From IMG/VR virus record IMGVR_UViG_3300043436_003696, positions 26,099 to 90,098 of that record: a stretch of 64,000 nt of DNA. One strand, given 5' to 3'. Shown one piece after another: positions 3,201 to 64,000 of this stretch. Origin of the DNA: a virus. The notes beneath the pieces are model-generated. The model saw only the letters and a list, made by a program, of their open reading frames with translations. It did not search any database and was not told the origin of the DNA. Both the position numbers and the translations under genes were made by a program. Positions within the stretch are counted from its first letter, which is position 1; each line of letters begins with the position of its first letter.

Positions 3201-6141
3201 AAATATAATTACAAAACAAGAACCTGAAACAGAAGAAGAAAAAAATAAAAAAATTATACGTCTTAAATCAATTAATGCAACTATTAAAAAAATTATTCTT
3301 ACAAAAGATTTAGAAGAATTTTTTAACGAAGCTAAATTTGAATTAGATAATATTTTATCTGGTAATATAACACCTGAAAAATTAGAAGCTGCTGGAGAAA
3401 TTTTACCTTTTTATAAAAACTTAAACTTTAGTGATTATATTAGTTCTTTTTCAGAAGATAAAGAATTACAAAAAACAGCTGTAAATAATTTAGGTAATTT
3501 TTTAATTAAAATACAAAAAATAGAAAAAATTTATAACGAAAATTTAGATAAAATAGCTGATAGTATTGGAGAAAAACTTGGAGTTGATGGTATAAATATA
3601 CCACAAAAAGATATTGGGTGGTGGTCTAAAATACTTAGTTACTTTTCAAGTAGCCAAAATCCGCATATACAAAGTTTATATAAATTATGGATTTCTGCAA
3701 AAGATACTGCAAGATTAGCTTTTGAAAAAGATTTAACAGAAATTGAAAAACTTCATAAAGATGTTTTAGAGTATGCTTCTAAAAACGGTATTGAATCTAA
3801 AAATGCTTATAAATTCATGCTTAAAAGAGATAAATTTAATAATCTTATTTTAATTGATAAATTTAGTAAAGAAGCTAGAAAAAAAATAAATAAAGCTAGA
3901 GAAGAAAAAAATTACTCTTATCTAAAAAAAGTTTTAGAATTTGATGAAAAGAAATACCTTGAAAAATATGAACAAGATAAAGCTTTTTATGAAAAACGAT
4001 ATGAAGGGGATAATAAAAAAATAAAACAAATGTTAGAGTTAACTAAAAAACAATTTGATGTTAGAAAATCTGAATATGCTTTATTAAATAAAAATAATCG
4101 CTTTGTAAAACTAAATGAAAAAGAAGTAGAAAAATCTAGTGAGTATGAACACATACAAAAAACACCTGAATTAAAAGCTTTTTACGATTATTTTGTAGAT
4201 AAAGTTTCTAATACTAGAAAAGAATTAGGTTTAGAATATGATTATAAGTTTGTACCACAAATAGGTAAGTCTATTATAGAAGCTATAACAGATGACGATA
4301 CTAAATTTAGTTTTGGAGATAATTTTTGGAATAGTGTTTCTACTAATAAAAATGGTAGTTATGGTGAAGTAAATGTTTTAACAGGTAATGTTGAATACCA
4401 AATATCTATGCCTTATCAAACTAAAATTGGTGAAAATTCTTCAGCAGATTTAGGTAAAGTTTTAGCATTATGGAGTAAAGCTGCACATGATACTAACCAA
4501 CTTAAAAAAATAGAAACTAGTAGTAAAATATTATTACAACACCTTGAAAAACAAGAATTTTATTTAACAGATTTTTTTGGTGACCCCAAAACTAAAAAAG
4601 ATTCACAAGATTTAGCATTAGTCAATGCTGAAAATAGTAACACTCTATCTGCATATATTAGTTATATGCAAGAAGCTATTTACGGTGTACAAAACGCTAA
4701 TGGTATGGCATTACCTAAAACAAGAAAAAGAGCTAAACGTGATTCAGAAGGTAATGTTGTAAAAGATGAAAATGGTAATATTGTAATGGAAGAATATGAA
4801 TTACCTGTTAGTGTAGATAAGTTAGTACAAAAAGTATTATCTTATATATCTGGTAATGCTTTAGGTTTTAATGTAATTTCAGCAGGAGCTAACTTAGGTG
4901 GAGGATTAGCTAACGGTTATTATATAGCACATCAAGATAAATTTTACAATAAAAAACAATTTACTAACGCAATTAGATTATTTAGTGCTGGTAGTATGAA
5001 TCTTCAGACAAAAGCTTTATTAAGGTACTTTGATATTACAGGTAATATGGAAGGTTTTAATAAAGCAAATGCATTATCAGTAAGTGCTGCTGACAGATTT
5101 TTAACTTATGATAAGTTATATACACTACAGAAAAAAGGAGATGATTTAATACATAACACAATTTTATTATCATTACTTCAATCTCATGGTATTTCAGAAA
5201 ATGGTAAAATAAAACTTTTGTCTAAATTACCAGAAGGTACTAAATCTTTACTAGAATCTACTGAAATTAAAGAAGATGAAATTTATATTAAAGGATTAAC
5301 TGATAATAAAGATAAAACAGAATATTTAAATTTTAGACGTAAAGCACATGAACTATCTAAAAAAATAGTAGGTGTTAGTCCTGACCATGATATTAGATTA
5401 GCTAATCAAACTATTATGGGTAGAATATTAATGCAGTTTAGAAATTGGTTGCCTAGAATGGCTGAAGAAAGATTTATGATTGGTACTAGATTTAATAAAA
5501 ATTTAGATGATTTTGAAAAAGGTAGATACATTAGTTTTGTACAGTTTCTTAATAAAAATATAACTGATGGTATGCTACAAATAACAAAATCATATATTGG
5601 TATAGGTGGTAATTTTGATGAAGTACTTTCTAAAAAATGGGAATTATTAAATCAAGAAACTAAAAACAAATATTTAAATAATACAGCAAATGAAGCAGAA
5701 GCAAAAGCGTCTTTCATATCTACTGAAAAAGCTAATTTAAAAGCAACAGTTTTAGAATTACAACTCATGTCTTTATTATTTGCTGCATTAATGCTATTAA
5801 ATGGTGGGGATGATGATGATGATAAATCACCAGTTAAAAAAATGCTTATAGCTATGACAGATAGATTACATAGTGAACTTTCTTTTTTTGTTTTACCACC
5901 ATCATTTTTAACAATTATAAAATCTCCTGTAGCTGCAAGTAGTACACTTAATGATAGTTATAACATAGTTGAAGATATTATAGGTCAAACAGTAGGTTTT
6001 ATTACAAATGATGAAGATAGAATGGATAAAAATAAACCTTTAAAAAGAACAGGTAAAATGTTTCCGCTTTTAAAAGAAGGTATAAAAGATTTTGACATTA
6101 TGTTTGATGACAGTTATCTTGATAATATTAAAAGTTGGTAA
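205..6141 (+). CDS. Giant (1978 aa) crAss-like virion/ejected polyvalent protein with lyase-like, ART-like, zincin-like and PD-(D/E)xK-like segments
   Basis: N-terminal MATCINRNHPNFK; GWKLHLS...GKNITVY; VYHGT...GKGFYF; TLTEEAVHF; AGAFDFLVV...ILDFKFT; long helical C-terminus. Last gene of a + block, followed by a terminator. Confidence 0.7.
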   Translation: MATCINRNHPNFKQISEANNNNDILANILIDNWQQRNNTDIIPTLEELKGKSFSVIKPGVEELFDSNPELPSQVYEALGFENLTRDQFNNITNMNSDINNGWKLHLSIKGVEEYESTEDSTPSKEIEKRATKTISILNTLKNRNLIQDYKIGNDGGQPGKNITVYIGNSKTIDEVVKILSTDELRESNIEGNLSLAKGISARFDSHRNDLKVDSEKYKLFRYGVNGIPNIRYGSSGVNQYSNEEIPYSLELLQASLGSYFNSSSIINNKLNKLYPNTVQISSQITPQQKQQALQQYSQYLDTIFPDSKVKDIVYHGTEDKFDKFDIKYFGKNDFGDLGKGFYFAFDKASIFNEPIVVSAIVNDTNSKQSPGYEIMIPNAEQIHILGNKQDIEGFKEFVGKKNNLESFQKDKEGKVIKVESSDELIDWLKQNNIITKQTEKGDWLLKVSIDATPTGIQTNKNLDKLKSIKGKNIIRINKTNEKFKETFKTNLNIIEPNLLNSGIVKFNKEALTLLNSPTINFQLSSKDTENFIPDEQLDSRIREFCTKLGIKVNIDSVLDAEGNPIPDVVARAKFVRENLSAIIDIAQNKQGYDTLTEEAVHFLVWMMRGTPLYNSMINDVIKTDTYKQVKKEYANVYSSEIQFKEEAITKLITESVIQQHQKGTKLTFDEYTNINNRINRWFNKVMSFIKDLLAKYSVNEYDVAAMKLLFNDTSDLSLNNINNNEEMYQLETNDISSKINDAINKIKSRHIKRDSNHKYSEDGFEYSKSVTEYIQRNKQFPDRSPSEKEQDEFARKIGDLGHADFNNSLKRAIELKEIGSYKTAIEIYTNPSIRSKIDTLVDDIVSSYGENARFLTEQMIGDKSKDIAGAFDFLVVYEKNNQVEAEILDFKFTQFKKEKSKVIADEIPAYKKKDYQEQLKTYKNILQNAYGLKFNINASLIPIGLNTIKKDNNWFLTGVEIGSTKFNEEKKYLNPIPLETNKTGNDSVDSIVAGLVAQKNIITKQEPETEEEKNKKIIRLKSINATIKKIILTKDLEEFFNEAKFELDNILSGNITPEKLEAAGEILPFYKNLNFSDYISSFSEDKELQKTAVNNLGNFLIKIQKIEKIYNENLDKIADSIGEKLGVDGINIPQKDIGWWSKILSYFSSSQNPHIQSLYKLWISAKDTARLAFEKDLTEIEKLHKDVLEYASKNGIESKNAYKFMLKRDKFNNLILIDKFSKEARKKINKAREEKNYSYLKKVLEFDEKKYLEKYEQDKAFYEKRYEGDNKKIKQMLELTKKQFDVRKSEYALLNKNNRFVKLNEKEVEKSSEYEHIQKTPELKAFYDYFVDKVSNTRKELGLEYDYKFVPQIGKSIIEAITDDDTKFSFGDNFWNSVSTNKNGSYGEVNVLTGNVEYQISMPYQTKIGENSSADLGKVLALWSKAAHDTNQLKKIETSSKILLQHLEKQEFYLTDFFGDPKTKKDSQDLALVNAENSNTLSAYISYMQEAIYGVQNANGMALPKTRKRAKRDSEGNVVKDENGNIVMEEYELPVSVDKLVQKVLSYISGNALGFNVISAGANLGGGLANGYYIAHQDKFYNKKQFTNAIRLFSAGSMNLQTKALLRYFDITGNMEGFNKANALSVSAADRFLTYDKLYTLQKKGDDLIHNTILLSLLQSHGISENGKIKLLSKLPEGTKSLLESTEIKEDEIYIKGLTDNKDKTEYLNFRRKAHELSKKIVGVSPDHDIRLANQTIMGRILMQFRNWLPRMAEERFMIGTRFNKNLDDFEKGRYISFVQFLNKNITDGMLQITKSYIGIGGNFDEVLSKKWELLNQETKNKYLNNTANEAEAKASFISTEKANLKATVLELQLMSLLFAALMLLNGGDDDDDKSPVKKMLIAMTDRLHSELSFFVLPPSFLTIIKSPVAASSTLNDSYNIVEDIIGQTVGFITNDEDRMDKNKPLKRTGKMFPLLKEGIKDFDIMFDDSYLDNIKSW

Positions 6142-6150
6142 TTAATAAAT

Positions 6151-6180
6151 AGAAAAGGGGTTATTAACCCCTTTTTCTTT
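6151..6180. terminator. Bidirectional rho-independent terminator between convergent gene blocks
   Basis: AAAAGGGGTT-ATT-AACCCCTTTT hairpin with A and T tracts on either side. Confidence 0.85.
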
Positions 6181-6246
6181 GCGATAAAAACTTTTAGCCT
6201 TGCCCTATACTTAAAATTTTTAGTTTCTACTGGCTAAAATTTTTAA

Positions 6247-6786
6247 CTATTTTAAAAAAGTATTAGTTGTTACTATTTCTAAGGTTTTTCGTTCTTCATC
6301 TAAATTTCTATTTAATGCAGCTTCTTCTGTAAACTTTTCTGGATAACGTACTTTTAATTTTTCTATGTTGTTGTATAAACATTTTTCAAAATTTAAATTA
6401 TAATATTCTGCTATACATTTCATAGTAAATATTATATCATTATGATTATTACGTTGTATATCAAAATATAAAAGATGTCTTAATATTTCATCAAAATCTT
6501 CTATTTTATAATTAGCTATATATTTTTCTAATGTTACTTCGAGATTTAAAAAAGTAGCTTCATTACAAGCATACCAAGCTACATCTGCTAATTCTTCACC
6601 TAAATTTACTATATCAATAGATTTTTTATAAGCTAATTCTTTTTTAAATATATCTAATATTTCACCTATTTCTGTTAATACCCCTAATTTCATGTGTAAT
6701 AAATCTTTTTCTAAACTTCCTAAACTTACGCAAGTTCTTTTAGCTAATTGTTGGTATTCTTGTATTGTTAATGTATTATTGCTCAT
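6247..6786 (-). CDS. MazG-like nucleotide pyrophosphohydrolase
   Basis: EYQQLAKRT, LGVLTEIGEILDIFKK, EELADVAWY, NIEKLKVRYP motifs. Confidence 0.85.
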   Translation of the reverse strand: MSNNTLTIQEYQQLAKRTCVSLGSLEKDLLHMKLGVLTEIGEILDIFKKELAYKKSIDIVNLGEELADVAWYACNEATFLNLEVTLEKYIANYKIEDFDEILRHLLYFDIQRNNHNDIIFTMKCIAEYYNLNFEKCLYNNIEKLKVRYPEKFTEEAALNRNLDEERKTLEIVTTNTFLK

Positions 6787-6859
6787 ATTTTTTTTTCAAT
6801 TAAATTTAAATCCTCATAATTTTACATAAAAAGATAAACTTTCATATAGTTCTTTGTAA

Positions 6860-7162
6860 CTAATTGTTTTCTGTTTTAGTTTTATATTGCTCATAAAGTA
6901 TATCTAATATTTTCATACCTTCTTCAAATTCTTTGTCTAATTCTTCAATAGGTAATTGTTTATCAATTCGTTTTATAAAATAATCATTTCGTTCTATAGC
7001 TTTTTTAATTAATTTTTTATAATCATTATTTATATATTCTTGTAAAAACAAAAATTGTTCATTTAATGCTTTACTAAGTCTATATAAAATAATAATGTGT
7101 TTAATTAATTCTTTTCCAGTTAATTTATTGCTTAAATTACCATTCAATTCTGTCATAACCAT
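6860..7162 (-). CDS. Hypothetical protein
   Basis: 100 aa ORF in the operon, overlapping the ung end. Confidence 0.6.
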   Translation of the reverse strand: MVMTELNGNLSNKLTGKELIKHIIILYRLSKALNEQFLFLQEYINNDYKKLIKKAIERNDYFIKRIDKQLPIEELDKEFEEGMKILDILYEQYKTKTENN

Positions 7163-7817
7163 TATCCATTAAAAATTTATTAGCTAAACTAAAACAATTA
7201 TTATAATTCCATTTTTTATCTTCATTATATAATGAAGCATTAGGGTGTTCACATTCTATAATTAATGCTTTTTTATTTACTATGTGTAATTTAACTTCTT
7301 TGGTTTTTTTACCAAATAATAAATAAAGAACAGGTTCATTTTTTTCTTGTAATTTATAAATAATAGCTGTTATAAATTTATCCCAATCTAAAATAGTATG
7401 ACTTTCAGGTTTTTGTTTTTCAACAGATAATGTTTTATTTAATAATAAAATTCCTTGATTAGCCCATCTTTCTAAATTACCATCTTGTTCTACTTTAAAC
7501 CCTTTGTAAATATCTTCTTCTATTGCTTTAAATATAGTTTCTAAAGCAAAAGGATATTTCATAGCATCTTCTCTACAGCTAAATGCTAGTCCATCTGATT
7601 CACCATTAGTATAAGGTTCTTGACCTACAATTACAATTTTAGTATTTTTATAAGAAGTTAATTTTAAAGCTTTAAAAAAATCTTTAGGTTCTGGATAAAT
7701 TGTTTTACCTAATGTTATTTCATTTTGAATATAAACACCCATTTTATGAAAATAAGGTTTATGTAGTTCATCTTGTAAAATTTCATCCCAATCATTTTTA
7801 AAAAGATTTACTATCAT
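7137..7817 (-). CDS. ung: Uracil-DNA glycosylase, family 1
   Basis: KIVIVGQEPY, GLAFS, LERWANQGILLLN, HP motif and NCFSLANKFL...IEW C-terminus. Confidence 0.92.
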   Translation of the reverse strand: MIVNLFKNDWDEILQDELHKPYFHKMGVYIQNEITLGKTIYPEPKDFFKALKLTSYKNTKIVIVGQEPYTNGESDGLAFSCREDAMKYPFALETIFKAIEEDIYKGFKVEQDGNLERWANQGILLLNKTLSVEKQKPESHTILDWDKFITAIIYKLQEKNEPVLYLLFGKKTKEVKLHIVNKKALIIECEHPNASLYNEDKKWNYNNCFSLANKFLMDNGYDRIEW

Positions 7818-25904: not shown

Positions 25905-26326
25905 AATATTTTTACATTAAAATCAACCAATTCTCTTTTTATTATCTGCTCTAAAATATTCCACCTAACACCTTCTATTTTAGGTATTGCTATAAATTCA
26001 TCACCTTTTAATACAGCACAAATATTTCTTAATCCTAAAGCAAAAGCAGTATATTCAAAATTAATTGGTATTACTTTATATTCATAACTAGTATATATAT
26101 TAAAGATAGTTAAATCTAAATTTTTGTAATAACAACTACTAAATTCACCTAATTTAAATATATCACCTTTTATTGTTTTTAAATCAGCTTTATTAACTTC
26201 TGGAAAAGCTTTAGCTAATTCTTTGTTATTCATATTACAAAAGCAATTACAAAAATTAATTATAACATCAAATTCTCCTTTAATCGCTTCTATAACAATG
26301 TTTTTATTTTGAGTATGTTCAATCAT
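25901..26326 (-). CDS. Macro-domain-like protein (phage type, degenerate)
   Basis: FDVIINFCNCFCNM...FPEV..AD...KLGEFS...NIYT...IAIPKI. Confidence 0.7.
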   Translation of the reverse strand: MIEHTQNKNIVIEAIKGEFDVIINFCNCFCNMNNKELAKAFPEVNKADLKTIKGDIFKLGEFSSCYYKNLDLTIFNIYTSYEYKVIPINFEYTAFALGLRNICAVLKGDEFIAIPKIEGVRWNILEQIIKRELVDFNVKIL

Positions 26327-29183: not shown

Positions 29184-32067
29184 TTATATTTTAAATCTGT
29201 TATTTGGATAAGATGATACCTTAACCCCATTTTCATTAAAAAGTTCAACAAAAATACAACCCTTATCTTCATAGTCGTTAAAAGCTTTTGTGGTTGTTTC
29301 GTAATACTTTTTAAGGGGGCTTTTACCCCTAAAATAAATTATTGCATACTTTTTACTTTTTTTTGTAGTTGCCATAACATTTATTCAGTTGCCTATATTC
29401 TGAAAGGTTCTAATTTATAAAAGCTATTGGCAAGTGCTACAACTCGTCCATAACAGCCATTAACATTAACGGACTAAAGCATACATAGCAAAATATTACA
29501 AACAACATTCCACCTCTTGCATCTTGCGACCATAGAAATGGGTTTGTTTCTGCTTTTAAAAAAGCTATTGCTATGTAAGCAAGTACCGACCAAATAATTA
29601 GTCCTAATGAAACTAATCCTAATGCTTTTACTGTGTTATTCATTTTTCGTTTAATTTAAAGTTTTAGTTTTCAAAATAGCCTTCTGGAATTAAAGACATA
29701 AATCTGCTCATTGGTCTTGGTGTTCCTTCTTGTTCTTTTCCGTAAGCGTATTGAAATGCTCGAACACTACTAAACACTTGTTCTTCTTGTTCTCCGAATG
29801 AGCAAATAGTATTGCTTATTGTATCATAAAAAGCAAAGTCGTTTTGTCCTTCGCAGATTTGGTTTTTTAAATTTAAAAATATAATCATATTTTTGTTGAA
29901 TTTACTTGTGAATAAACCGCACTACTACATAACGTTATAACATTCTAATATATGCCTCTTCAAGTTTCCATTCACAATGAGCTATTGCGTTTGCCTGCTT
30001 TTCTTTATTACTATCATCATTGTACCAGTCGTATACTTCGGAGTCGTTTGTGTATGTTTCAACTTCTTCCCCATTTACAGTTCCACTAATTACGTATCTT
30101 CCATAAGATGAAGTGCTAGATACTTTGATGTTTTCTATTGTGTGTGTGAATTTCATTTTGCGAGTTTTTAAATTGTTATTGTTGTTGTTATTGTTATTTA
30201 ACGGTACGAATGTAAATTTATTATTGACAATAGTTTAGTGTTCCAAAATTTTCTACTTCGCCAAGTCCTGTTCGTTGTATGCAATTTTATTTTACAGTCA
30301 CTAAATAATTTTCTCCAACGTAGTTACCTAACAATCTAAAAGTTAAACCTTTAGGAAGATATTGTCTTTTTAAATGCTTTATAACTGATTTTACCGATGT
30401 TAAATGTGCAGTATTGGTATTATGAGGATATGGAGTATCATAGCTGACCCATATATTTGTTTCATTATTGTACCAAAAATCACCTTCACATTGTAACCAC
30501 CATTTGCTTTTACCATCTAAAGGTTTTCTACGCAACGGAAATTTAGTGTATTTATCACGTGTAATTTTAATTACTCTATTTTGCTTAAAGGTTTCTTTTG
30601 GTTTTGCTGTTAAATCAATTGTTTTAAACTGTTCAAATGATTCTTCACTATAAACATTTTTCATTCTTTCTAAAACAAAATCATTTTTACAATTTTGGAT
30701 TAAATATATATCTAACCAAGTTGGAGTATTCATAATAGGAATTTCACCATTTAAAAAATCTTTTTCTTCATAAGTCCAAACCCAATCACTAATACAAACT
30801 GTTAACCCATCAAAAAATGTTAATTTTTGACTATCTGCCCAAATTTTAAACTCTTTATAATCTTTATAAGAGTTTGTGTATGTTTTATCTATTCCTGCCA
30901 TATTAATTTCTGCGTTTATTACTTTACGTTATAAGTAATGCTTACTAACGCACTCAACTAACTCATTATATTCCTCAATCCATTCAATGTTAATCTTTAA
31001 CCCAGCATTATAGTATCGAGCAATTGCTCCACGCACTTTATTAAATCGTTCTACTTTTACTCGTTCAAAGAAAACATCGTGAAATCTTTTAGGTATCAAT
31101 CCTAATGGTGGTTCGATAGCATTACCGCTAATAGCACTTATATTTAATTGGGCGGTTTTTTGGTTATTCAAATTTTCTACTTTCATCTTTTATTTGTTAT
31201 TTAAAGTTTGTACTATTTAATCCTCTCCTTTCATCACTTATAAATAAATTCTTTATAAAATTGTCAATATCTTTAATATTTTCTTCCCAAGAATATTCGT
31301 TGTCTAACATATATAAAGAAACTTCACTTGAATCAACTTGTGAATTTCTACCATAAACACCTTTATAAAACCTCAATAATATATTATCATCTGATTTATC
31401 ACCAAATATATAATAAGCTATTGCATCCGTAGCATAAGGATATTTATTACCATATTTTTTGTATAGTTTTTGAATGTTATCAACAACACTCACATTTTTA
31501 TTTACAAATTGCTTAAAGTTCTTAATTTTATCAATCATTTTTTTAATATCTTTACTCATAGGTTTTTTCATTACATAAAATATTAATAATTAAATAATTA
31601 AGTAAAACTACATATATAATATAGTTATATGCTATTTTAACCCATCACACCCAAAATGGTTATAAAGTATTATTTGTTTCTTTACAATCATTATAGTTGC
31701 ATCAGGACTTTCGATTGTATCTGTTTCATATTTTGTTTGGCATTTGTAATACTTTTCTCCATGTACTGTTATATAATATTTAATAGTAGATGGTATAAAT
31801 GCCACCAAAAATATGCAAACAAATAAAATCCATTGCTTAAATAGTAGTATTTTTGAAATTAATCTTTTCATATTTATTTTATTTTAACATTTGTTCTTTA
31901 AAAAGTTTCATCGCTTCCTCGCACATTACTTTTATTGTTTTAGAACAAATATTATTTGAAAATGCCCCTTGCACTTCGTTATTATGCCATTCATAGTTAA
32001 TAACAGTATTGTTATTATTGTCATCTACTTCTATTTCAATGTCTTTTACTTTTACTTTTATTCTCAT
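29184..32067 (-). other. Array of small unrelated ORFs separated by degenerate attC-like arms
   Basis: ORFs 29184-29375, 29437-29643, 29664-29888, 29935-30156, 30287-30901, 30929-31186, 31197-31571, 31632-31871 and 31879-32067. Minus-strand GTTATAACG, GCATACAACG...CTTGGCGAAG, ACTTATAACG and GCATATAAC occur at or right after stops. Confidence 0.6.
30287..30901 (-). CDS. Hypothetical protein
   Basis: 204 aa ORF, largest in the array. Confidence 0.65.
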   Translation of the reverse strand: MAGIDKTYTNSYKDYKEFKIWADSQKLTFFDGLTVCISDWVWTYEEKDFLNGEIPIMNTPTWLDIYLIQNCKNDFVLERMKNVYSEESFEQFKTIDLTAKPKETFKQNRVIKITRDKYTKFPLRRKPLDGKSKWWLQCEGDFWYNNETNIWVSYDTPYPHNTNTAHLTSVKSVIKHLKRQYLPKGLTFRLLGNYVGENYLVTVK

Positions 32068-55436: not shown

Positions 55437-55692
55437 TGAACTAATTCAAATTAATTCTGACCTTGTATATTATTATGCTAATATAGGAGAACATAAATTT
55501 AATAATTTAAGATTTGCTACAGAATTTTGTCTTGATAAACAATCTGTACTAAAAGAATTAACATTATACCAATGGGTATTAAATTATTGGGAACAATATT
55601 TTGATGGTACGCCTAAAGAAAACAATTATATTACTCAAGAAGAATTTAATATAATGATTAATAGAATAAAATTTATAATTTATAATAGATAA
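55420..55692 (+). CDS. Small structural protein
   Basis: Coupled to neighbours; NYITQEEFN...I C-terminal motif. Confidence 0.55.
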   Translation: MVVTVDELIQINSDLVYYYANIGEHKFNNLRFATEFCLDKQSVLKELTLYQWVLNYWEQYFDGTPKENNYITQEEFNIMINRIKFIIYNR

Positions 55693-58600
55693 TGAATACT
55701 AATATATTTGGTAAATATTCAAAAAATTCTAAACCTCAAATAGGTTTAATTTCTTACGATAATTTGTTTGATTTACCTAAACCTTCTAACAATGGTGAAG
55801 ATGGATTAGATGGAAAATCTATATATATTATAAGCTATTCTTACACATTACTAGGAGATACAGAAATATTATTTTCTGATGGTAATACAGTTATTGTAAA
55901 AAAAGGAGATAAAGGAAATAAAGGAGATGGTGGTGAAAATGGATTAGCCCCAGAACATGAATGGTCTGGAACTTTTTTACGTTTTAAAAATCCTAATAAT
56001 ACATGGGGTAGTTACACAAATTTAAAAGGAGATAAAGGGAATAAAGGTGATATTGGAGAGTCAGGAGAATCTATAGAAATAGTTTCATATAGTTATGATT
56101 TATTTGGTAATACAGATATATTATTTTCAGATGCTAGTACTGTAAAAGTTTTAAGAGGTCAAACAGGACTTAGTTCATACAATTTTACTAATGGTACAAT
56201 ACTAGATACTATTAATGTTAAACTAGGAGGTAGTTTAACAGAAAATACTACTATTGCAACAGATGGTTATTCTTTTTATTTAGGTGATAATTTTGCTAGT
56301 TTAAGATATAATCAATTTAATGCTGGTAATTTATTTTTAGCGCATGATAAAAATAATGAATTAAGTTTTAGTATAGCTAACGCTAATGCAGGTGAAAACG
56401 CTTCTATAAATTATGGGTTTATAAATGATACAGCAGCTTATGGCTTATCTTTTTCTTATTACTCATCGTTATATGCACAAAATACTTATGATGATGTAGC
56501 TAATACAGCAGAACTTAAATTTTGGAAAAAGGGTAATATATTACATACTCAAAATGTAGGTTTAGATTTTTGGTATGGAAATCCTACTACTTTAGTTTAT
56601 TATAAAATGCTTTCTTTTTATAATAACAAAGTAGGTATTGGTAATTTTAATACAAACTCAACAGATATTAATAGTACATTACATTTAAAAGGTAGTTATT
56701 CAACATCAGGTTTTACAGGTAAAATAGATAATTATACTATAACAGCAGATGATTATATTGTTACTTTTCATTTAGCTGCTATAAATAGAACATGTACAAT
56801 ACCTGTACACTCAACAGCTAATTTTGGGGCAGGTAAAAGATTTATTATTCGTAATTTAAATCTGTCCACAGGTAATTTAACAATACAATTAAGTGGAGCA
56901 GATAAATTTGATGGTGGTATTTCTGCAATAAATTCTTTAGTTTTATTACCTAATCAATCAGTAGAAATAATATCATTTAATAACAGTAATTGGAGTGTAT
57001 TATCTTCAACAATTGCTAATACTGGTAGTGGATTTGTTCCATATACAGGAGCAACTCAAAATGTAAACTTAGGTGGTTATGATTTGATTGCTAATTCGAT
57101 TATTAAAAATGGAGGTACTTCAAGTCAATTCTTAAAAGCAGATGGAAGTATTGATTCAACATCATACTACCCTAACAGCAACCCAAGCGGATTCATAACA
57201 AGTGCAGCGTTAAGCGGTTACATAAGCGGTTCACTAACTACTGGATATTTACCTGTTGCAACAGGAGCAGGTACGGTGGCAAATAGTGTGTTGCGAGAAG
57301 TATCAGGCAATTTAGGATTAGGAGTTACACCGAGTGCGTGGAGTGGAGTTAAAACATTACAAATTGGTAATTCAAGTTTTCTTGATTCTCTAATAAGTTT
57401 GCAATTAACATATAATGCATATTATAATGGTAGTAATTGGATATATATTAAATCTGATGCTGCTTCTAACTATTATCAAGCAAGTGGACGCCATTCTTGG
57501 AGAACCGCCCCTTCAGGAACGGCAGGTAACGTTTTAACAACCTTTCCCGACTTAATGACGTTAGCAGCTACTGGTAACCTACTAATAGGAACAACAGTCG
57601 ATAACGGAGTAGATAGATTACAGGTTAATGGTAGTGCAAGAATTAATAGTACTCTTACTGTTGGTAGTTTAGCAGGAACAGGTACACGAATAGTAACAGC
57701 CGATACTAATGGAGTGTTGGAAAAAATATTAGGTACATCAAGTCAATATGTGCGTGGTGATGGTAGCTTGGCAACATTCCCAAGTATAACGGGATTAGTT
57801 CCATATACAGGGGCAACTGCAAATGTAGATTTAGGAACTTTTGATTTGACCGCAGATGTTATTACAGGTACAATAGGTTCTTATACAAGTTCTGGTAATG
57901 GTAATACTTTAAGCGTTACCCATTCAAGTGGTAGCGGTATTGCTTTGAATATTACTAAAAGTGGTAATGGAGAAGGTTTATACATAAACAAAACAAGTGG
58001 TTCGGGTAACGCTGCAACAATCATAGGTACGTTAAACGCAACTACTTTAGTTAAGTCAGGAGGTACTTCAAGTCAATTCTTAAAAGCAGATGGAAGTATT
58101 GATTCAAATAGTTATCTAACATCAATAAATGGAATAGCTGCTGGTGGTGATTTAAGTGGTACATATCAAAGTCCAAATGTCAGTGGGTTGTTAGGTTCTC
58201 CTTTACCATTTTTTGGGGGAATTAGTGGTGACACTTTATTGTTAGGAAAAGACATTTCAACAGGAGATTGGACAACAATATCTTTGTCCAACATAATTAC
58301 TTTTAGTAAATTATCTGAACCTTTGTATGTATATACAGACCTTTTTGGTAATAAATTTCTTGATATACGAGTTGCAACAGCAAGCCAAAATGGAGTTTTG
58401 TCATCTAGTGCATTTACTACATTTACTAATAAACAAAATGCAATAACACTAACAACTACAGGAACTTCGGGTGCAGCTACTTTTTTAGGAGATACATTAA
58501 ATGTACCCAATTATACTTTAGCAGGGTTAGATGGTGTTCCAACTGGAAGAACATTAACAATAAATGGAACGGCATTTGATTTAAGTGCAAATAGAAGCTG

Positions 58601-59552
58601 GAATGTAGGAACAGTAACAGGTGTTACAGGAACAACTAACAGAATAACATCAAGTGGAGGTGCTACACCAATAATAGATATTGCTTCTACCTATGTAGGG
58701 CAATTATCAATAACTACTTTAGGAACTATTGGAACTGGTGTATGGCAAGGTACAGCAATAGGAGATGCTTATATTTCAAGTGCAGCTATTTGGAACGCTA
58801 AAATAGGTGGCTCACTAACTACTGGTTATTTACCCGTAGCAACTGGAGCAGGTACGGTGGCAAATAGTGTGTTGTTTCAAAATGGTAATAACGTAGGTAT
58901 TGGAGTAAGTCCACTTTATAATTTACATATTCAAGATTCTAAAGCATTGGGGTTGTATTCTTACTTAGAAAATACTAGTTCTAATTCAATTGCAAGTGCT
59001 AGTTATATAGCTAAATCTCAATCAGGTGTTACAATAGGAATGACTGCTTTAAATCAGGGTGGTGGTGCGCTGATTAATTCTTCACATAATTTAACAATAG
59101 AAGCAAGTGGTGGTGGTGGTATGGTGCTACAAACAAATGGTCAAATTATAACTAATGGGGCGGTTAATAGTGGAGAACATTTTATTATTGGTGGTAGTGC
59201 TAGAATTAGTGGAACTCTTAGAGCTGCACAAATAAGCACAACAAAACAAACACTAACACCTACTGGAACAACGCAAACAATAGATTGGAATAACGGAAGC
59301 ATAGTTGACCTTGTATTAAGTTCGGCAACTGGAAACGTTACTCTCACATTATTGAATGCGCAAAACGCTATTTGCCCTTTAATAGAAGTAACTAATGGTG
59401 CAACTCCTAGAAATTTAATCTTCCCAACAGGAACAATTCAAGCTAATGGAGGTGGAAATGTTTACGTTGGAACTGCAAATAGAAAAGACGTTATTGCGGT
59501 ACTATGGGATGGGACTCAATTTCTAATATCTGTTTCACGAAATTTTGCATAA
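55692..59552 (+). CDS. Tail fibre/receptor-binding protein
   Basis: Collagen-like GDKGNKGD repeats, G/T/S-rich fibre motifs (GGTSSQFLKADGS, VPYTGAT, GNLLIGTT, NVGIG), internal duplications. Confidence 0.88.
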   Translation: MNTNIFGKYSKNSKPQIGLISYDNLFDLPKPSNNGEDGLDGKSIYIISYSYTLLGDTEILFSDGNTVIVKKGDKGNKGDGGENGLAPEHEWSGTFLRFKNPNNTWGSYTNLKGDKGNKGDIGESGESIEIVSYSYDLFGNTDILFSDASTVKVLRGQTGLSSYNFTNGTILDTINVKLGGSLTENTTIATDGYSFYLGDNFASLRYNQFNAGNLFLAHDKNNELSFSIANANAGENASINYGFINDTAAYGLSFSYYSSLYAQNTYDDVANTAELKFWKKGNILHTQNVGLDFWYGNPTTLVYYKMLSFYNNKVGIGNFNTNSTDINSTLHLKGSYSTSGFTGKIDNYTITADDYIVTFHLAAINRTCTIPVHSTANFGAGKRFIIRNLNLSTGNLTIQLSGADKFDGGISAINSLVLLPNQSVEIISFNNSNWSVLSSTIANTGSGFVPYTGATQNVNLGGYDLIANSIIKNGGTSSQFLKADGSIDSTSYYPNSNPSGFITSAALSGYISGSLTTGYLPVATGAGTVANSVLREVSGNLGLGVTPSAWSGVKTLQIGNSSFLDSLISLQLTYNAYYNGSNWIYIKSDAASNYYQASGRHSWRTAPSGTAGNVLTTFPDLMTLAATGNLLIGTTVDNGVDRLQVNGSARINSTLTVGSLAGTGTRIVTADTNGVLEKILGTSSQYVRGDGSLATFPSITGLVPYTGATANVDLGTFDLTADVITGTIGSYTSSGNGNTLSVTHSSGSGIALNITKSGNGEGLYINKTSGSGNAATIIGTLNATTLVKSGGTSSQFLKADGSIDSNSYLTSINGIAAGGDLSGTYQSPNVSGLLGSPLPFFGGISGDTLLLGKDISTGDWTTISLSNIITFSKLSEPLYVYTDLFGNKFLDIRVATASQNGVLSSSAFTTFTNKQNAITLTTTGTSGAATFLGDTLNVPNYTLAGLDGVPTGRTLTINGTAFDLSANRSWNVGTVTGVTGTTNRITSSGGATPIIDIASTYVGQLSITTLGTIGTGVWQGTAIGDAYISSAAIWNAKIGGSLTTGYLPVATGAGTVANSVLFQNGNNVGIGVSPLYNLHIQDSKALGLYSYLENTSSNSIASASYIAKSQSGVTIGMTALNQGGGALINSSHNLTIEASGGGGMVLQTNGQIITNGAVNSGEHFIIGGSARISGTLRAAQISTTKQTLTPTGTTQTIDWNNGSIVDLVLSSATGNVTLTLLNAQNAICPLIEVTNGATPRNLIFPTGTIQANGGGNVYVGTANRKDVIAVLWDGTQFLISVSRNFA

Positions 59553-59555
59553 CAT

Positions 59556-60425
59556 ATGTTTGGTAACGCTTTCTTTTTTTCATCGAGATTAATACTTGAC
59601 GGCTTAAATAGTGCTGCTGCGTATAGTTTACGAAAACTTCGTACTGAATACTTAGGTGCAGCTATTAATGTAAGAAGAAGTAGCGACAGTGCCACTCAGG
59701 ATATTGGCTTTACAGCAAGTGGTGATTTAGATACTGTAACTTTGCTAGCATTTGTAGGTGTTGGTAATAATGGCTTTGTAACAACGTGGTACGACCAATC
59801 GGGCAATGGTCGCAATGCAACTCAAGCCACGGCAGGATCGCAGCCGCAAATTGTTAGCAATGGTGCGATACAGACGGAAAACGGACGGCCCACGCTGCGC
59901 TTTGACGGCATAGATGATTATTTAGCTGCCCCTTCTCCGCTTATTAACACAACGCACAGTTTGTTTATTCTGTTCACACCGAAGATTGAAAATGAATTCG
60001 GGACTGTTTTTGGGCAGTGGTCTTCTGGGCAAACTGACCGTTTTTACATTATTGCAAACCAAAATTCGGCTGGACCTATTTCGGCTGGGTTCTTAAACGT
60101 AGCCAACATTGCAGCGACAGGAGGCAACGGAACCAACGGTTTAGCCGCAGATGTTGCTATTTCAAATACACCCACTTTAATCACATCTATATCAACCACC
60201 GGAAGCGAGCAGTGGAAACTGTTTAAGAACGGCACACAATGGGAAAGCGCAACAATTACGAGCCTCTATACGGGGGTTAATAGTGCTATAGGTTCGTTGA
60301 ATGGAACTGCATCATTGCTCACATTTGACGGCACTGTATCAGAATTGATTTCGTTCCCCTCCGTCCTCTCCACCACCAACCGCCAAGCACTCGAGCGTAA
60401 CCAAGGGCAATTTTACAGTATATAA
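59556..60425 (+). CDS. LamG/ConA-like carbohydrate-binding virion protein
   Basis: AAYSLRKL...VRRSSD...DIGF...VTTWYDQSGNGRNATQ...FDGIDDYL. Confidence 0.8.
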   Translation: MFGNAFFFSSRLILDGLNSAAAYSLRKLRTEYLGAAINVRRSSDSATQDIGFTASGDLDTVTLLAFVGVGNNGFVTTWYDQSGNGRNATQATAGSQPQIVSNGAIQTENGRPTLRFDGIDDYLAAPSPLINTTHSLFILFTPKIENEFGTVFGQWSSGQTDRFYIIANQNSAGPISAGFLNVANIAATGGNGTNGLAADVAISNTPTLITSISTTGSEQWKLFKNGTQWESATITSLYTGVNSAIGSLNGTASLLTFDGTVSELISFPSVLSTTNRQALERNQGQFYSI

Positions 60426-60622
60426 CACCTTTGCGGGGGGGGTGTTAGCCTGAACGCTAACGCCTGCCGCCTTGCGAAGCAAAAGCCTTTTGCGTGACAG
60501 CTGCTGTTTTTTTTCTCGTTGATTTTCAGTGCTTTAGAAAATAATTTGAAAATATATTTGAAAAAGTTTGCACAATCAAAACAAGTGTTATTTATTTGTA
60601 CCAACAAAAACGGTAAAACAAA

Positions 60623-60817
60623 ATGACAAATTTAAAAACAACACTTGGACTTAGAAACAACATCGACCAATTTTCAACTTTGGAAGGTGCTAACAGATGG
60701 GCAAACAACTGCGTAAAATTACATATTGTCTTGCTTGGCGATAACGGCAAATATTGGGTTGCTTGTTTTGTAGATGCTCAAAAACTTTCTAAAATGGGTT
60801 ATGAAATTGCAGCATAA
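60623..60817 (+). CDS. Hypothetical protein
   Basis: 64 aa ORF with an A-rich leader. Confidence 0.6.
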   Translation: MTNLKTTLGLRNNIDQFSTLEGANRWANNCVKLHIVLLGDNGKYWVACFVDAQKLSKMGYEIAA

Positions 60818-60970
60818 GAAAAAAAAAGTGGCGGCACTAGAAAAGGTTCGGGTGCTAAACCTAAATATAATGAGCAAACTAAAACAGTTGCATTTCGCTG
60901 TCCGCTGTCAAGAGTAGATGAGCTGAAATTAATCATTAAGTCTAAACTCTCGGATTGGATGGTAAAATAG
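60801..60970 (+). pseudogene. Small DNA-binding protein gene frameshifted at an A9 tract
   Basis: The frame SGGTRKGSGAKPKYNEQTKTVAFRCP...WMVK* has no in-frame start; the ATG at 60801 is one frame off across A9 (60819-60827). Confidence 0.5.
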
Positions 60971-61022
60971 CCTATAACGCCCGCAGCCTTACGCAGTGCG
61001 GCTTAACAAGTAAAATTTATAG

Positions 61023-61437
61023 TATGAAAACAGAAGATTATTTTAACGAAGGAACACCATTTGAAAGCATGAAAGCATTAAAAGCAAAAGAGCAACTAAC
61101 AGTATTGCTACCAAAAGAAATCAGCTACGGACACACCATTGAAGAAGCCGAAGATCAAGATTTCATTACAGAGGTTATTGAGCAATTTGCAATGATGCAA
61201 GCGCATAACTTTTTAACATGGTTGGAAAACGAACAATACCAGCATATAGGCTCAGGCGATTGGTCTAATGGTGAACAAGTTTTAAACGCATCGGACTTGT
61301 ACCAAAAGTTTATTGAATCAGACATTAAACCGCTGTTAGCGGCTGTGTTGCCGATTCAGAAAGTGCCAAAAGAGTTTTGTCGGTGTAAAAACCCGCTTGT
61401 TCACGATAGTCAATGTCCATGCGGCATTGACCGCTAA
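61023..61437 (+). CDS. Hypothetical protein reading through an attC-like arm
   Basis: Probable start MKTEDYF (ATG near 61023); the stop codon lies in CCGCTAAC. Confidence 0.55.
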
Positions 61438-61502
61438 CGGTTTTGGGCTTGCGAAGGCAGGGATTAAGAAAGAAAAATTATCAACTTAAAACAAAATAAA
61501 TT

Positions 61503-61757
61503 ATAAAAACGAAAATTTCAATTAACCGATTAGCCTTTGCTTTTGCAAGTGTGCTGTTCTGTGCCGTCTTTTCTTCATGTATTGATGAAGAAAAAAAAAG
61601 TAAAAGAGAGAGAGAGTATATTGAGAGAAAAGAGCTAATTTATAAAACAGAACATTGCAGGTATTATTGTTTAGAACGTAATGGACTTGAACAGTGCAAG
61701 GTTGTTATTTGCGAATGTGATAGCGGTTATAACGCTGATGTATCTGTGTCATGGTAA
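61503..61757 (+). CDS. Putative small lipoprotein
   Basis: The frame extends upstream to (I)KTKISINRLAFAFASVLFCAVFSSC, a lipobox-like sequence; the start would be ATA or GTG. Confidence 0.5.
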   Translation: MKTKISINRLAFAFASVLFCAVFSSCIDEEKKSKREREYIERKELIYKTEHCRYYCLERNGLEQCKVVICECDSGYNADVSVSW

Positions 61758-61829
61758 AAGGTTACCTAAGGGTTTGCAAGTATATTTAGTTGCAGTACTT
61801 TATTTAGAACAAATTTAATTTAAAAATAT

Positions 61830-62408
61830 ATGAGAAAAGGAGATTTTACAACACTTGGAGCAACTGCTCATTCTGATGAAGAAAGAGAAGAAAATGATTT
61901 TTATGCTACCGACCCAAAGGCATTAGAATTATTTTTAGACCAAACAGGTATTGAATTACGGAACGTATGGGAATGTGCTTGTGGAGAAGGGCATTTAGCA
62001 AAAGTATTAGATGCAAGAGGATTGCTTGGAAGAGCAAGTGATTTGATTGATAGAGGTTATGGGGTAACAGAAAGTAATTTCTACTACTTTTCTGAAACAT
62101 GGGAAGGAGATATTTTAACAAATCCACCATACAGAGATGCAATGAAATTTTGCCAACACGCTCTTGATTGTGTAGATGAAGGAAGTAAAGTAGTAATGCT
62201 GATGCGTATTCAATTTTTGGAAGGGCAAAAACGTAAACCGTTTTTACTTGCGAACCCGCCAAAGTATGTATATGTAAGTAGTTCAAGATTATTACTTGCA
62301 AAAAATGCAGACTTTGTGAAATACAATACACCCTCTGCCAACTGTTATGCTTGGTATGTTTGGGAAAAGGGATTTAAAGGAGAAACTACTTTGCGTTGGT
62401 TTAACTAA
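61830..62408 (+). CDS. DNA amino-methyltransferase (N6-A/N4-C)
   Basis: DFYATDP, WECACGEG (SAM-binding motif I), ILTNPPY (motif IV), YAWYVWEKG. Confidence 0.9.
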   Translation: MRKGDFTTLGATAHSDEEREENDFYATDPKALELFLDQTGIELRNVWECACGEGHLAKVLDARGLLGRASDLIDRGYGVTESNFYYFSETWEGDILTNPPYRDAMKFCQHALDCVDEGSKVVMLMRIQFLEGQKRKPFLLANPPKYVYVSSSRLLLAKNADFVKYNTPSANCYAWYVWEKGFKGETTLRWFN

Positions 62409-63096
62409 AATGTGCATTGATATGGGCTTATCTGAAAATGAAATGAACAAAGTTCTCGAAGGGGAACAGTGTAAAACTCAATGCGTAGCCTGTGCTTGTA
62501 TTGTTGGCGAACAAAGAATGAAAACTCAAAAATTAATCGAAAAGATTAACGAAGGACGTTCTTAGTATTACTGCTAACGATGGATATTGGCGCAGTGCGT
62601 ATTATTAACAATAAAATGATAGAAATTTATAAAAAAACAGAATTAGGAACTCAAATAAGGGTTAACAACGGATCTATTGAAACTCTTATAAAACGTGAAC
62701 TACCTTATGGATTATTCCAAAGCGAAAGTGGGTACAAAGTGGTAAGAAGTATTACCTCTATTAAAGATTCTGATATAGTAAAATGTGAAACATGGGAACA
62801 ATAACATATAAGAGGCGTAAAGTAAGCGGTGGTGTTGCAAAATACTACGTTGAAATAGATGCACAAATTGGAACTATTCAAATAATTAAAATTCATTTTG
62901 TGCCAAATAATAGTTTGCATCCAACAGCCCACGTAAGCAGGAAATTTAGCACACATAGCTTAGTAATTCAGTGTATACCGCTATTGGTTGAGGATATAAA
63001 TATAATTTATCAGCAAATAGCGGGAGCAAGCAAATTGGTAAAAAATTAAATAGCACAAAACCGCTGTGAGCAGACGGCTTTCTAATATTTTCAATT

Positions 63097-63531
63097 ATGA
63101 CAACATTCGTTTTAATAGTTTCAGAGTTCTTTCCAAAAACTCACAAAAAATCAGGCAAGCCAACAGGTTTTCCTTTGTCAATTAAACATTATGATAAAAT
63201 ACACACTATCAGAGGTAACTATGATTTGTGGGCTAAACGATTTGAAAAAATAAACAAAGGCGAAGCTATTTTGTCAGTTAGAATTTGGTCAGGCAAACCA
63301 TACCAAAGTAAACAGCAAGAGATTTTCAAGTATGATAAAACTCACGGAATAGGTATGCAAAAATTAGAACAACCAAACAATTTTGTATTTGCACCTATTG
63401 AAGGTAAAAAAGTAAACTGGGATTTGGTAGCAAAAAATGACGGATTAAGTTTTGAAGATTTTTGTGAGTGGTTCAAAGTTAGGTCAGACAAACCTATGGC
63501 AATTATTCATTTTACGGATTTTCGCTATTAA
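63097..63531 (+). CDS. Conserved Bacteroidota-phage protein, ASCH/PUA-like
   Basis: KIHTIR, WSGKPYQSKQ, AKNDGLS.EDF.EWF. Confidence 0.6.
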   Translation: MTTFVLIVSEFFPKTHKKSGKPTGFPLSIKHYDKIHTIRGNYDLWAKRFEKINKGEAILSVRIWSGKPYQSKQQEIFKYDKTHGIGMQKLEQPNNFVFAPIEGKKVNWDLVAKNDGLSFEDFCEWFKVRSDKPMAIIHFTDFRY

Positions 63532-63678
63532 GCTGTCTGATAGCGTTTTGTGGCTTGGCGAAGTACCGCCTTGCAGAATGTTGAATTATAGTACAAAGGC
63601 TTGTGGCGGTATTTTGCCAAACCACTGTTATAAGCCGTTTTTTATTCGTGTTTGGCTTAACAATTTAATTTAAAAACA

Positions 63679-63963
63679 ATGACAAGATTAGAAGAAATTA
63701 TCAGAACAACAAGAGCAACTGGAAACACAACTTGGATTTTACAGTCAGCTATCAAAAGACCTAATTGCATAATCGTTTCAAGAAATATGCAACAGGCAAA
63801 ACATTTAGAACAAGCATATAAAAGTTTGTTGTCAAAAAGTGCTTGGTATAAAAAATTATGGTGGAAATGGTTTGGTCGTAAAAGTCCAAAGTTTGTTTCA
63901 CTTGATTTCAGATTTGATGGGTATCGTCTGCCTGTTATTTTTGATAACGGGTCGTTGTTCTAA
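63679..63963 (+). CDS. Hypothetical protein, possible degenerate P-loop fragment
   Basis: RATGNTT...IIVS...PVIFDN. Confidence 0.55.
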   Translation: MTRLEEIIRTTRATGNTTWILQSAIKRPNCIIVSRNMQQAKHLEQAYKSLLSKSAWYKKLWWKWFGRKSPKFVSLDFRFDGYRLPVIFDNGSLF

Positions 63964-64000
63964 AATGGCTTATAGCGCAAAAACTGCCGATAGTTCGGTA

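Follow-up and report, generated by a model that had tools for sequence, protein, structure and literature searches.

The array and its composite reading frame

The window analysed here (64,000 nucleotides, IMG/VR record IMGVR_UViG_3300043436_003696, positions 26,099 to 90,098) makes up the final 64 kb of one phage contig (90,098 bp, 26.7% GC), and the sequencing runs containing this stretch are lake-water metagenomes. A tail-fibre gene (55692–59552) is followed by a virion-protein gene (59556–60425, phrog_10356) and then by about 10 small open reading frames (ORFs), every one on the plus strand, in a zone of 33–38% GC that extends to the contig end. This integron-like cassette array spans 60426–64000. 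It contains ORF137, a composite frame that crosses the junction between two cassettes. Integrons are understood as movers of whole genes, with non-coding recombination sites. Their attC sites are imperfect hairpins of ~57–141 nt with RYYYAAC/GTTRRRY end boxes (...AAC and GTT... boxes are called R'' and R' below), in which structure is conserved more than sequence, and each integron cassette opens with bases that can pair with the R'' box in its own attC. The features around ORF137 are as follows, where an arrow marks the putative crossover point.

60968–61068, plus strand: decayed attC-like site upstream of ORF137, with R'' box CCTATAAC (60971–60978), bulged hairpin GCCCGCA...TGCGGC, A-rich leader region, ATG at 61024 and 15 leader codons
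61024–61437, plus strand: composite ORF, 137 aa from ATG, made up of leader, core and tail
61069–61326, plus strand: core gene, M16–I101, 86 aa; homologues P0003–P0005 and P0007 (86 aa) span exactly this part
61327–61342, plus strand: junction AAACCGCT G↓TTAGCGG, comprising the R' core and, before it, the 3' end that is conserved among attC-like sites of this family
61339–61437, plus strand: small cassette "X", 98 nt, starting TTAGCGG and ending CCGCTAA(C), with 8-nt inverted ends
61430–61465, plus strand: 5' half of the next attC-like site (CCGCTAAC GGTTTTGGGCTTGCGAAGGCAGGG)

The initial annotation of this DNA had proposed that the frame reads through a right attC-like arm and stops in the next left arm. 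We found this to be correct, apart from a start placed one base off (61023). The codons AAA CCG CTG TTA GCG GCT GTG (KPLLAAV) span CCGCTGTTAGCGG at 61330–61342, and the TAA (61435–61437) falls within CCGCTAACGG, i.e., in the ...CCGCTAAC box of the next cassette. The 15-codon leader starts inside the decayed upstream site, after its box, hairpin and A-rich stretch. Cassette X has a single open frame, which is that of ORF137; it encodes a CxCx5Hx3C tail, and its stop lies inside its R'' box. The DNA of cassette X folds with z scores of -2.5 and -2.9. The site at 60968–61068 has no intact R' box and its hairpin alone folds no better than shuffled sequences (z 0.15); both sites flanking ORF137 (60968–61068 and 61327–61342) are truncated, with folds no better than shuffles.

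Eight clusters of ORF137 homologues were recovered. Seven end at ...KFIESDI (six) or ...KFIE (one), without the tail, and six of these seven begin at or near M16 (four of 86 aa, two of 83 aa). Only P0001 (1/8 clusters; 95% identical, 16 member sequences) bears the 36-aa extension; the seven tail-less clusters together comprise 19 member sequences, which puts the fused form at 16/35. Logan contigs of runs X5 and X8 cover 61047/61069–61326 as separate pieces with starts at 61047–61076, and in one of them 61069 is preceded by 149 nt of different sequence. Since homologues and Logan contigs delimit that part, the conserved unit is 61069–61326. In L004, a contig with a second such array, a TGA codon stands right after ESDI (TGAG where the window has AAAC), and the DNA departs from the window after CGCTGT, into a different segment. 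The frame of ORF137 thus runs on because this variant has AAAC where its relatives have a stop. The core gene had no match in Pfam or PHROG, and its Atlas matches were below 0.9, none of them named. Two scans of metagenome contigs, one by alignment and one by protein, yielded pattern matches, none of which was confirmed.

Breakpoints and alternative ends of the core gene

Joints were mapped with Logan contigs from lake-metagenome runs, among them X4, X5 and X8; array parts lacking contig cover in some runs were excluded from the evidence. Positions 60971 and 61335, which the initial annotation had named as arms, turned out to be real mosaic breakpoints. Besides the virion-gene end and a terminal element, the sole long block common to the window and L004 is 60975–61340 (366 nt, 96.7%). 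One X5 contig carries other sequence, ending ...GGTCGTAAC↓GC, just before 60975, while Logan contigs terminate at 61326 or 61340. The left edge of the ORF137 unit, at TAAC, adjoins four different upstream sequences; the block keeps its hairpin and leader, and the four upstream boxes are CCTATAAC, CGCTAAC (two) and GTCGTAAC. On the right, a second X5 contig (depth 104) joins 61330–61336 to 63062–63067, where the sequence CGCTGT fits both sides. The latter position is the start of the ORF144 cassette:

63047–63072, plus strand: minimal site AATAGCAC-AAAACCGCT-G↓TGAGCAGAC, start of the ORF144 cassette; the 10-mer AAACCGCTGT is common to this site and 61327–61336

Partners therefore switch at the PLLAAV/GTTAGC junction, as had been proposed: the window continues into the 98-nt cassette, L004 into TGA and another segment, and X5 into the ORF144 cassette. 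Three ends of the core gene follow. The first is the ...ESDI stop (L004 and the seven clusters). The second, predicted, is ...ESDIKPL followed by a stop. It arises when the ORF144 cassette is attached at CGCTG↓T to the variant without a stop, and the TGA with which that cassette begins closes the frame; it occurs in one X5 contig and needs confirmation, because the shorter side of the joint is only 30 nt. The third is the 36-aa tail (the window, contig L003, P0001 and the bridging contigs of X4, X5 and X8). Because CGCTG↓TTA lies inside the frame, exchange of the downstream cassette alters the predicted C-terminus.

We considered whether the array, or the junction between ORF137 and X, might not lie on one molecule at all. 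The first 214 nt of the contig are a 97% copy of 60202–60415, the 3' end of gene 59556–60425; L003, a 47-kb IMG/VR contig, joins an identical array stretch (3749 nt, 100%) to a phage of 52–56% GC; and in lake metagenomes the depth of the shared virion-gene end exceeds that of the array ~100-fold. However, the junction 61326–61340 was bridged as in the window by contigs of X4 (record 11), X5 (record 21) and X8 (record 29), three runs from three studies, and the fused protein forms a cluster of its own, P0001, with 16 members. In addition, degenerate element copies lie inside the low-GC backbone (29900–31700), and L089 and L091 are other low-GC contigs with higher-GC arrays. An assembly artefact or chimera is therefore highly improbable. 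A mis-join at the virion gene is possible, and would bear on the carrier phage, not on ORF137 itself.

The breakpoints also bear on whether any site-specific system acts here. The region could be a hyperplastic region of small accessory genes, where general or illegitimate recombination uses conserved intergenic sequences, composed of terminator-like hairpins and translation-start regions, as its short homologies. In T4-type phages, promoter/stem-loop cassettes act as short homologies of this kind. Two breakpoints fall at start codons: the block common to the window and L091 ends at one (60629), and an X8 joint connects 61020 to 63094 at ATTATG. Further points in favour of this explanation are the X5 joint in a 10-nt repeat and the lack of a recombinase match in the window's genome. 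By our own classification, nine of the 19 listed block and joint ends in the window lie away from TAAC/GTTA-type boxes. Against this, the other 10 lie within 5 nt of TAAC, GTTA, TAGC or GTGA, whereas 21% would be expected from the share of the array covered by those 4-mers with 5-nt flanks; the classification of the 19 ends was made by eye and some of them are not independent. The related arrays described below provided three further points against it.

The tail and its partners

The 36 residues of the tail were searched exhaustively against 1.84 billion representatives, with E values up to 0.001. Among the 12 matches, six carry the tail at the very C-terminus with 70–79% identity: P0010 (51 aa), P0011 (110 aa), P0015 (166 aa), P0016 (109 aa), P0017 (75 aa) and P0018 (60 aa). 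The remaining six are long repetitive proteins. The N-terminal parts of the six tail bearers are unrelated to ORF137 and to one another, except for ~9 residues beside the tail that P0010 and P0011 have in common. The CxCx5Hx3C motif is invariant in all six aligned tail sequences, which represent seven contexts, as P0010 and P0011 share one tail. Judged from protein only, the residues just before the tails (VSG, VIS, VIY, VGI) back-translate compatibly with a GTTA-type box. The check for partner switching that the initial annotation had suggested is thus borne out, with the core lacking the tail in 7/8 clusters and the tail standing behind six unrelated N-termini. At the level of sequence, the same tail behind seven partners, ORF137 included, is partner switching.

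Other searches added no bearer. A tail profile run against proteins of >70 aa gave five matches, all known, and no new cluster; the tail region among proteins of 75–240 aa matched P0001 only. The back-translated tail pattern matched only the two viral contigs already known and no genome contig.

Related arrays and the pairing of cassette ends

The gene that led to related arrays is a methyltransferase downstream of cassette X:

61779–62579, plus strand: methyltransferase cassette, with a probable degenerate start TTTAGTTGCAGTAC and its own R'' box ATTACTGCTAAC; it contains the methyltransferase (61830–62408, phrog_799) and a 51-aa ORF (62410–62565)

Relatives of the methyltransferase were confirmed in 81 of 86 candidate stretches, of which 79 loci were kept, and arrays were found near them in L088, L089, L091, L092 and L096. 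The unit is homologous in L088, L089, L090, L091, L092, L096 and L165, from 61786–61829 to 62408–62415. It had been placed between arms at 61763 and 62503. These arms did not hold up: there is no break at 62503, the one nearest to 61763 is at 61757, and homology ends at 62408–62415. In X5, a back-joint connects 63067 to 61799, with 14 letters lying between the two. The methyltransferase block common to L088/L089 and L091 runs from a G↓TTA box to its ...TAAC box plus 2. Between L088 and L089, the shared sequence also takes in the site before it, beginning with that site's ...TAAC box.

The sites between genes in the related arrays are short (~95–148 nt) and mostly non-coding; they begin ...TAAC GGTTT and end AAACCGCT GTTA.... 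When 11 of them were folded as single-stranded DNA, 10 formed long bulged hairpins (z -1.45 to -5.0); for five of the 11, no shuffle out of 200 folded better, and in several the end boxes (...TAAC/GTTA...) were paired. The exception, L088:3990–4135, folded poorly (z -0.6). Imperfect hairpins with end boxes were recognised by eye and by folding in L088, L089, L091, L092, L096 and L004, as well as at 63529–63645 in the window.

Cassette starts are complementary to their own 3' boxes in L091 (GTTATACGC/GCGTATAAC and GTTAGCTGCTG/TAGCAGCTAAC) and in L092 (GTTATAAGC/GCTTATAAC). To count such pairs, five arrays were pooled (L089 being excluded as a duplicate of L088), partners were allowed to lie up to 1600 nt apart, and 200 dinucleotide shuffles served as the null distribution. 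GTTA...TAAC pairs with at least 9/11 matches numbered 22, compared to 9.0 ± 3.7 in shuffles, and those with at least 10/11 numbered 6, compared to 1.2; neither value was reached in any of the 200 shuffles. For the opposite polarity, TAAC...GTTA, there was no enrichment (12 pairs vs. 8.2 expected, reached by 33/200 shuffles). Since only the GTTA...TAAC polarity is enriched, the gene-enclosing arms are ordinary cassette ends and not halves of split sites, and the left-right arm pairs hundreds of bp apart that the initial annotation had described are not borne out.

Recombination between homologous intergenic repeats gives no reason to expect that a cassette's start should complement its own 3' box. 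The long hairpin sites are diverse in sequence and common in shape, and a gene of the Xer/IntI group abuts one of the arrays. These three points count against general recombination as the only process, an explanation that we regard as unlikely.

A different possibility is that split sites carry whole genes, and that the array is a dedicated terminus-shuffling device in which leaders, bodies and tails are mobile and the frame is kept by selection. ORF137 indeed lies between a 5' half-site and a AAACCGCT+GTTAGCGG end, with the whole block moving together in L004, and the ORFs at 62617–63049 are similarly placed between 62570 and 63066. Frames that start at an ATG 45–66 nt upstream of a G↓TTA box and cross the box occur in L088 (three times), L004 and L091; these ATGs directly follow the site hairpin and an A-rich stretch. 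In L004, a well-folding 141-nt site (z -3.1, 0/200 shuffles) holds an ATG and a 22-codon leader in its loop. By our own count, the main frame of the cassette crosses six of 15 G↓TTA boxes and starts after the box in nine. The invariance of CxCx5Hx3C across seven contexts and the commonness of the fused form (16 member sequences vs. 19 tail-less) also fit such a device.

Several observations stand against it. TAAC...GTTA arm pairs are not enriched, the halves around ORF137 are not complementary beyond 6/8 box bases, and seven of the eight homologue clusters lack the tail. Two frames are used across G↓TTA boxes, so random exchange would often break the frame. For the same reason, and because GTG, TTG or ATG codons just past the boxes may be the true starts, the leaders are predictions only. 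The conservation of the tail's frame is biased, because a protein search finds intact frames only. We consider this device unlikely. The claim of the initial annotation that genes sit inside split attC-like sites is not supported, given the same 6/8 pairing. Its proposal of domain shuffling stands in one part, namely that the C-terminal partner changes at the core; a selected device, as opposed to a side effect of exchange combined with a missing stop, is not supported, and an adaptive shuffling device is unproven. We also tried 60971–61342 as one giant foldable attC and rejected it, as its flanks do not pair.

Recombinase genes and the origin of ORF137

Two of the five related contigs encode a tyrosine recombinase, and in one of them it adjoins the array. 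In L092, a 50-kb phage contig, a 276-aa recombinase (3248–4078) starts ~50 nt past the last ...TAAC box of the array; its best match is the Xer/integron-integrase model, at 188 bits (cut-off 220). In L166, a 298-aa tyrosine recombinase (1183–2079) lies ~30 kb from the array of a 170-kb contig. The L092 recombinase belongs to the Xer/IntI group and, as it scores under the cut-offs, is not assigned to IntI proper. In a complete integron, an integrase (a tyrosine recombinase with an extra segment specific to IntI) stands beside the array, together with attI and Pc. An IntI adjoining the array was found neither in the window's genome nor in the five related contigs. IS200/IS605-type single-strand transposition involves a Y1 HUH transposase and subterminal hairpins with a fixed tetranucleotide for cleavage. 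IS200/IS605-like ends were considered and rejected: there is no PF01797 match, and the hairpin after TAAC to the left of the ORF137 unit has no counterpart at the block's right end.

The reading we favour, and hold to be probable, is that the stretch is an integron-like array without an integrase, of the type known as clusters of attC sites lacking integrases (CALINs), located behind the tail genes of a low-GC lake phage, and that ORF137 is a three-module chimeric frame. Each cassette would open with a G↓TTA... box and close with a ...TAAC box complementary to it, and hairpin attC-like sites would lie between the cassettes. The first module would be a start codon and 15-codon leader supplied by the decayed upstream site, the second the 86-aa core gene, and the third the coding body of the next small cassette, X, entered because AAAC replaces the stop. 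The sequences show the modules and where they break, the partners that replace one another, and the tail following other N-termini. In favour of the array reading are the short elements behind same-strand ORFs, the hairpin sites and cassette-end pairing of the related arrays, the recombinase beside the L092 array and the published phage CALINs; in favour of the composite frame are the tail-less homologues, the stop in L004, the bridging and alternative contigs, the tail's other partners and the box-crossing frames of L088, L004 and L091. The exchanges were presumably carried out by an Xer/IntI-like tyrosine recombinase encoded by the phage or its host, and the ORF137 fusion protein may be made.

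Several points weigh against this reading. The window array has no pair of ≥10/11. Its own sites are degenerate, and the foldability of the sites flanking ORF137 is not demonstrable. The window's genome has no match to Phage_integrase (PF00589), Resolvase or Y1 transposase (PF01797). Against TIGR02249, the L092 recombinase scores 163 bits (cut-off 265), in two separate stretches. Breakpoints occur at ...TAAC boxes as well as at G↓TTA, which integron exchange at G↓TT only does not predict; exchange at two boxes, or general recombination between similar sites, would account for both types. Finally, the X5 joint sits in a 10-nt exact repeat (AAACCGCTGT) with a shorter side of 30 nt, so slippage or short-homology recombination fits it equally well. 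The pairs within the window are weaker: 8 contiguous bases for X (61335–61437) and, judged by eye, 11 of 15 for the ORF144 cassette (63066/63531). The window array is the most decayed of the set, and several of its sites are decayed.

A more specific proposal, which we put forward tentatively and think doubtful, is a phage-borne relative of integrons. An Xer-like recombinase without the IntI extra segment might exchange at both boxes of the hairpin sites, with start codons and short leaders carried in sites and stop-less bodies or tails in cassettes. Besides whole genes, such exchange would recombine parts of small proteins. The fusion of ORF137 to its tail would result from this process, as would the presence of one CCHC tail after seven partners.

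Comparison with known systems

Phage CALINs have been reported, 17 in all (Qi et al. 2023, PMC9892861). That study describes one in a Polaribacter phage with two putative methyltransferases, and an array preceded by a terminator in which two GTTRRRY motifs are inverted; relatives of the present phage may be among the 17. The present array resembles CALINs in its same-strand, promoter-less small ORFs, its hairpin sites with ...AAC/GTT... boxes, cassette starts complementary to their own 3' box, mini-cassettes without ORFs, methyltransferase cargo, a palindromic GTT/AAC terminator-like start and the lack of an integrase in the phage. It differs in that its sites were recognised by hand and not by the attC models of that field, and many sites in the window are truncated. 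Moreover, breakpoints fall at both boxes, starts and leaders lie inside sites, frames run across the crossover core, and the sole associated recombinase, in a relative, is Xer-like and under the integron-integrase cut-offs.

Class 1 integrons contain fused cassettes and junction-spanning frames, e.g., the aac(6')-Ib N-terminal variants set by upstream sequence. As in the present case, a neighbouring module sets a protein end and partial site loss fuses two cassettes. Here, in contrast, it is the C-terminus that varies, the tail stands behind unrelated partners, the setting is phage metagenomes and there are no resistance genes. Among the papers listed by a literature search on junction-spanning cassette ORFs, none was directly relevant.

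Shufflons and the invertible segments of tail fibres (Rci, Gin/Cin) likewise alter the C-terminal part of proteins by recombination, and are found in phages near tail genes. However, those systems invert between inverted repeats, have ends on both strands and use a dedicated invertase, whereas here all array ORFs lie on the plus strand, cassettes are deleted or inserted, and neither Resolvase nor Phage_integrase gave a match. In CTX-type phages, DNA that is single-stranded and folded is integrated by Xer. The likeness is an Xer-type tyrosine recombinase with hairpin-forming sites; unlike there, a recombinase adjoins the array in only one related contig, and the present system is known from sequence alone.

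What appears new is a breakpoint motif that often lies inside predicted frames, three ends for one gene, and one tail with seven partners. At least three alternative ends of one gene occur in natural populations, and exchange alters the predicted protein ends. Translation of the fusions would make cassette exchange a source of new small phage proteins; in that case, gene calls from such arrays, which account for at least seven database "proteins" with one tail in common, would also have to be interpreted one module at a time. The findings also add an instance of an integron-like array in a low-GC phage, with an Xer-like rather than an IntI recombinase nearby (in a relative); the array family comes from uncultured lake phages.

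Other features of the array and its carrier

The remaining features of the array are as follows.

60444–60461, no strand assigned: palindrome GTTAGC-CTGAAC-GCTAAC at the array start, just past the virion-gene stop; R'-type box, 6 nt, R''-type box
60453–60501, plus strand: first short attC-like site, with R'' box AACGCTAAC, an interior with a CTTGCGAAG motif, and a degenerate R' box GACAGCTGC (counterpart GTTAGCTGC in L091)
61551–61757, plus strand: small lipoprotein-like ORF; other sequence follows past 61757 in run X5
62570–62616, plus strand: 5' half of an attC-like site, CTGCTAAC with hairpin and A-rich leader region, preceding ORFs 62617–62804 and 62792–63049

Behind most array ORFs lies a short element with a CTTGCGAAG-like motif; it begins ...TAACG or ...TAGCG and often overlaps the stop codon of the preceding ORF. 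A profile built from eight copies of the element recovered only the copies of the array and of L004, plus one weak match (E 0.87) inside the backbone at 30232–30270. Around that position (29900–31700, minus strand, low-GC backbone), degenerate and more eroded copies of array elements were recognised by eye: GTTATAACG...AGTGCGGTTTATTCACAAGTAAATT near 29935 and GCATACAACG...CTTGGCGAAG near 30285.

At the array start, the palindrome is paired in the fold of 60436–60505, a stretch whose folding does not exceed that of shuffles (z -0.83). Eight consecutive G (60436–60443) immediately precede the first GTTAGC box, and one X5 contig has a GAG insertion after 60434. A lox/dif-like double-strand core site (box, 6 nt, box) was dropped as a general model, as this spacing occurs only at 60444–61. 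Homology to L091 (3733–3870) begins at 60490. Comparing 60623–60970 with L091 4043–4555, we found 50 in-frame codons past the TAA of ORF 60623–60817 that are homologous to the C-terminus of a 170-aa L091 protein (83% identity in DNA); the region looks like the remnant of a truncated gene. In the lipoprotein-like ORF (61505–61757), a signal-peptide-like stretch (..KISINRLAFAFASVLFCAVFSSC) begins 5' of the first ATG, GTG or TTG, with no canonical start before it.

Concerning the carrier, the repeat of 60202–60415 at genome positions 1–214 wraps the contig into a circle. Beyond the shared array, L003 encodes replication genes of 52–56% GC (3840–7183; nuclease-like and primase/helicase-like by eye); this would mean either one chimeric assembly or phages of very different kinds with the same array. 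In four lake metagenomes, contig depths summed over the 3' part of gene 59556–60425 (window 59800–60500) came to 500–3000, while over most of the array it was 2–25 in three of those four runs and higher in X5. Relatives of this virion gene were encoded by 494 of 511 candidate IMG/VR stretches, and the gene seems to be very widespread as a module among lake phages; the 80 loci around its relatives held no further array of this kind.

The two arrays of the window and L004 have a 119-nt terminal element in common, with 97.5% identity (L003 3712–3845, corresponding to window 63963–64000 onward, and L004 1322–1439). Its pattern occurred in viral contigs only in the two already known. The element folds strongly (z -4.1, 0/200 shuffles) and has two copies of the motif CGGTACTCCG. 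A 15-mer (AAAATTAAATAGCAC) and an 11-mer (CGCTGTGAGCA) are present both at 63042–63072 in the window and at 991–1031 in L004, in reversed order, as expected of a circularly permuted cassette.

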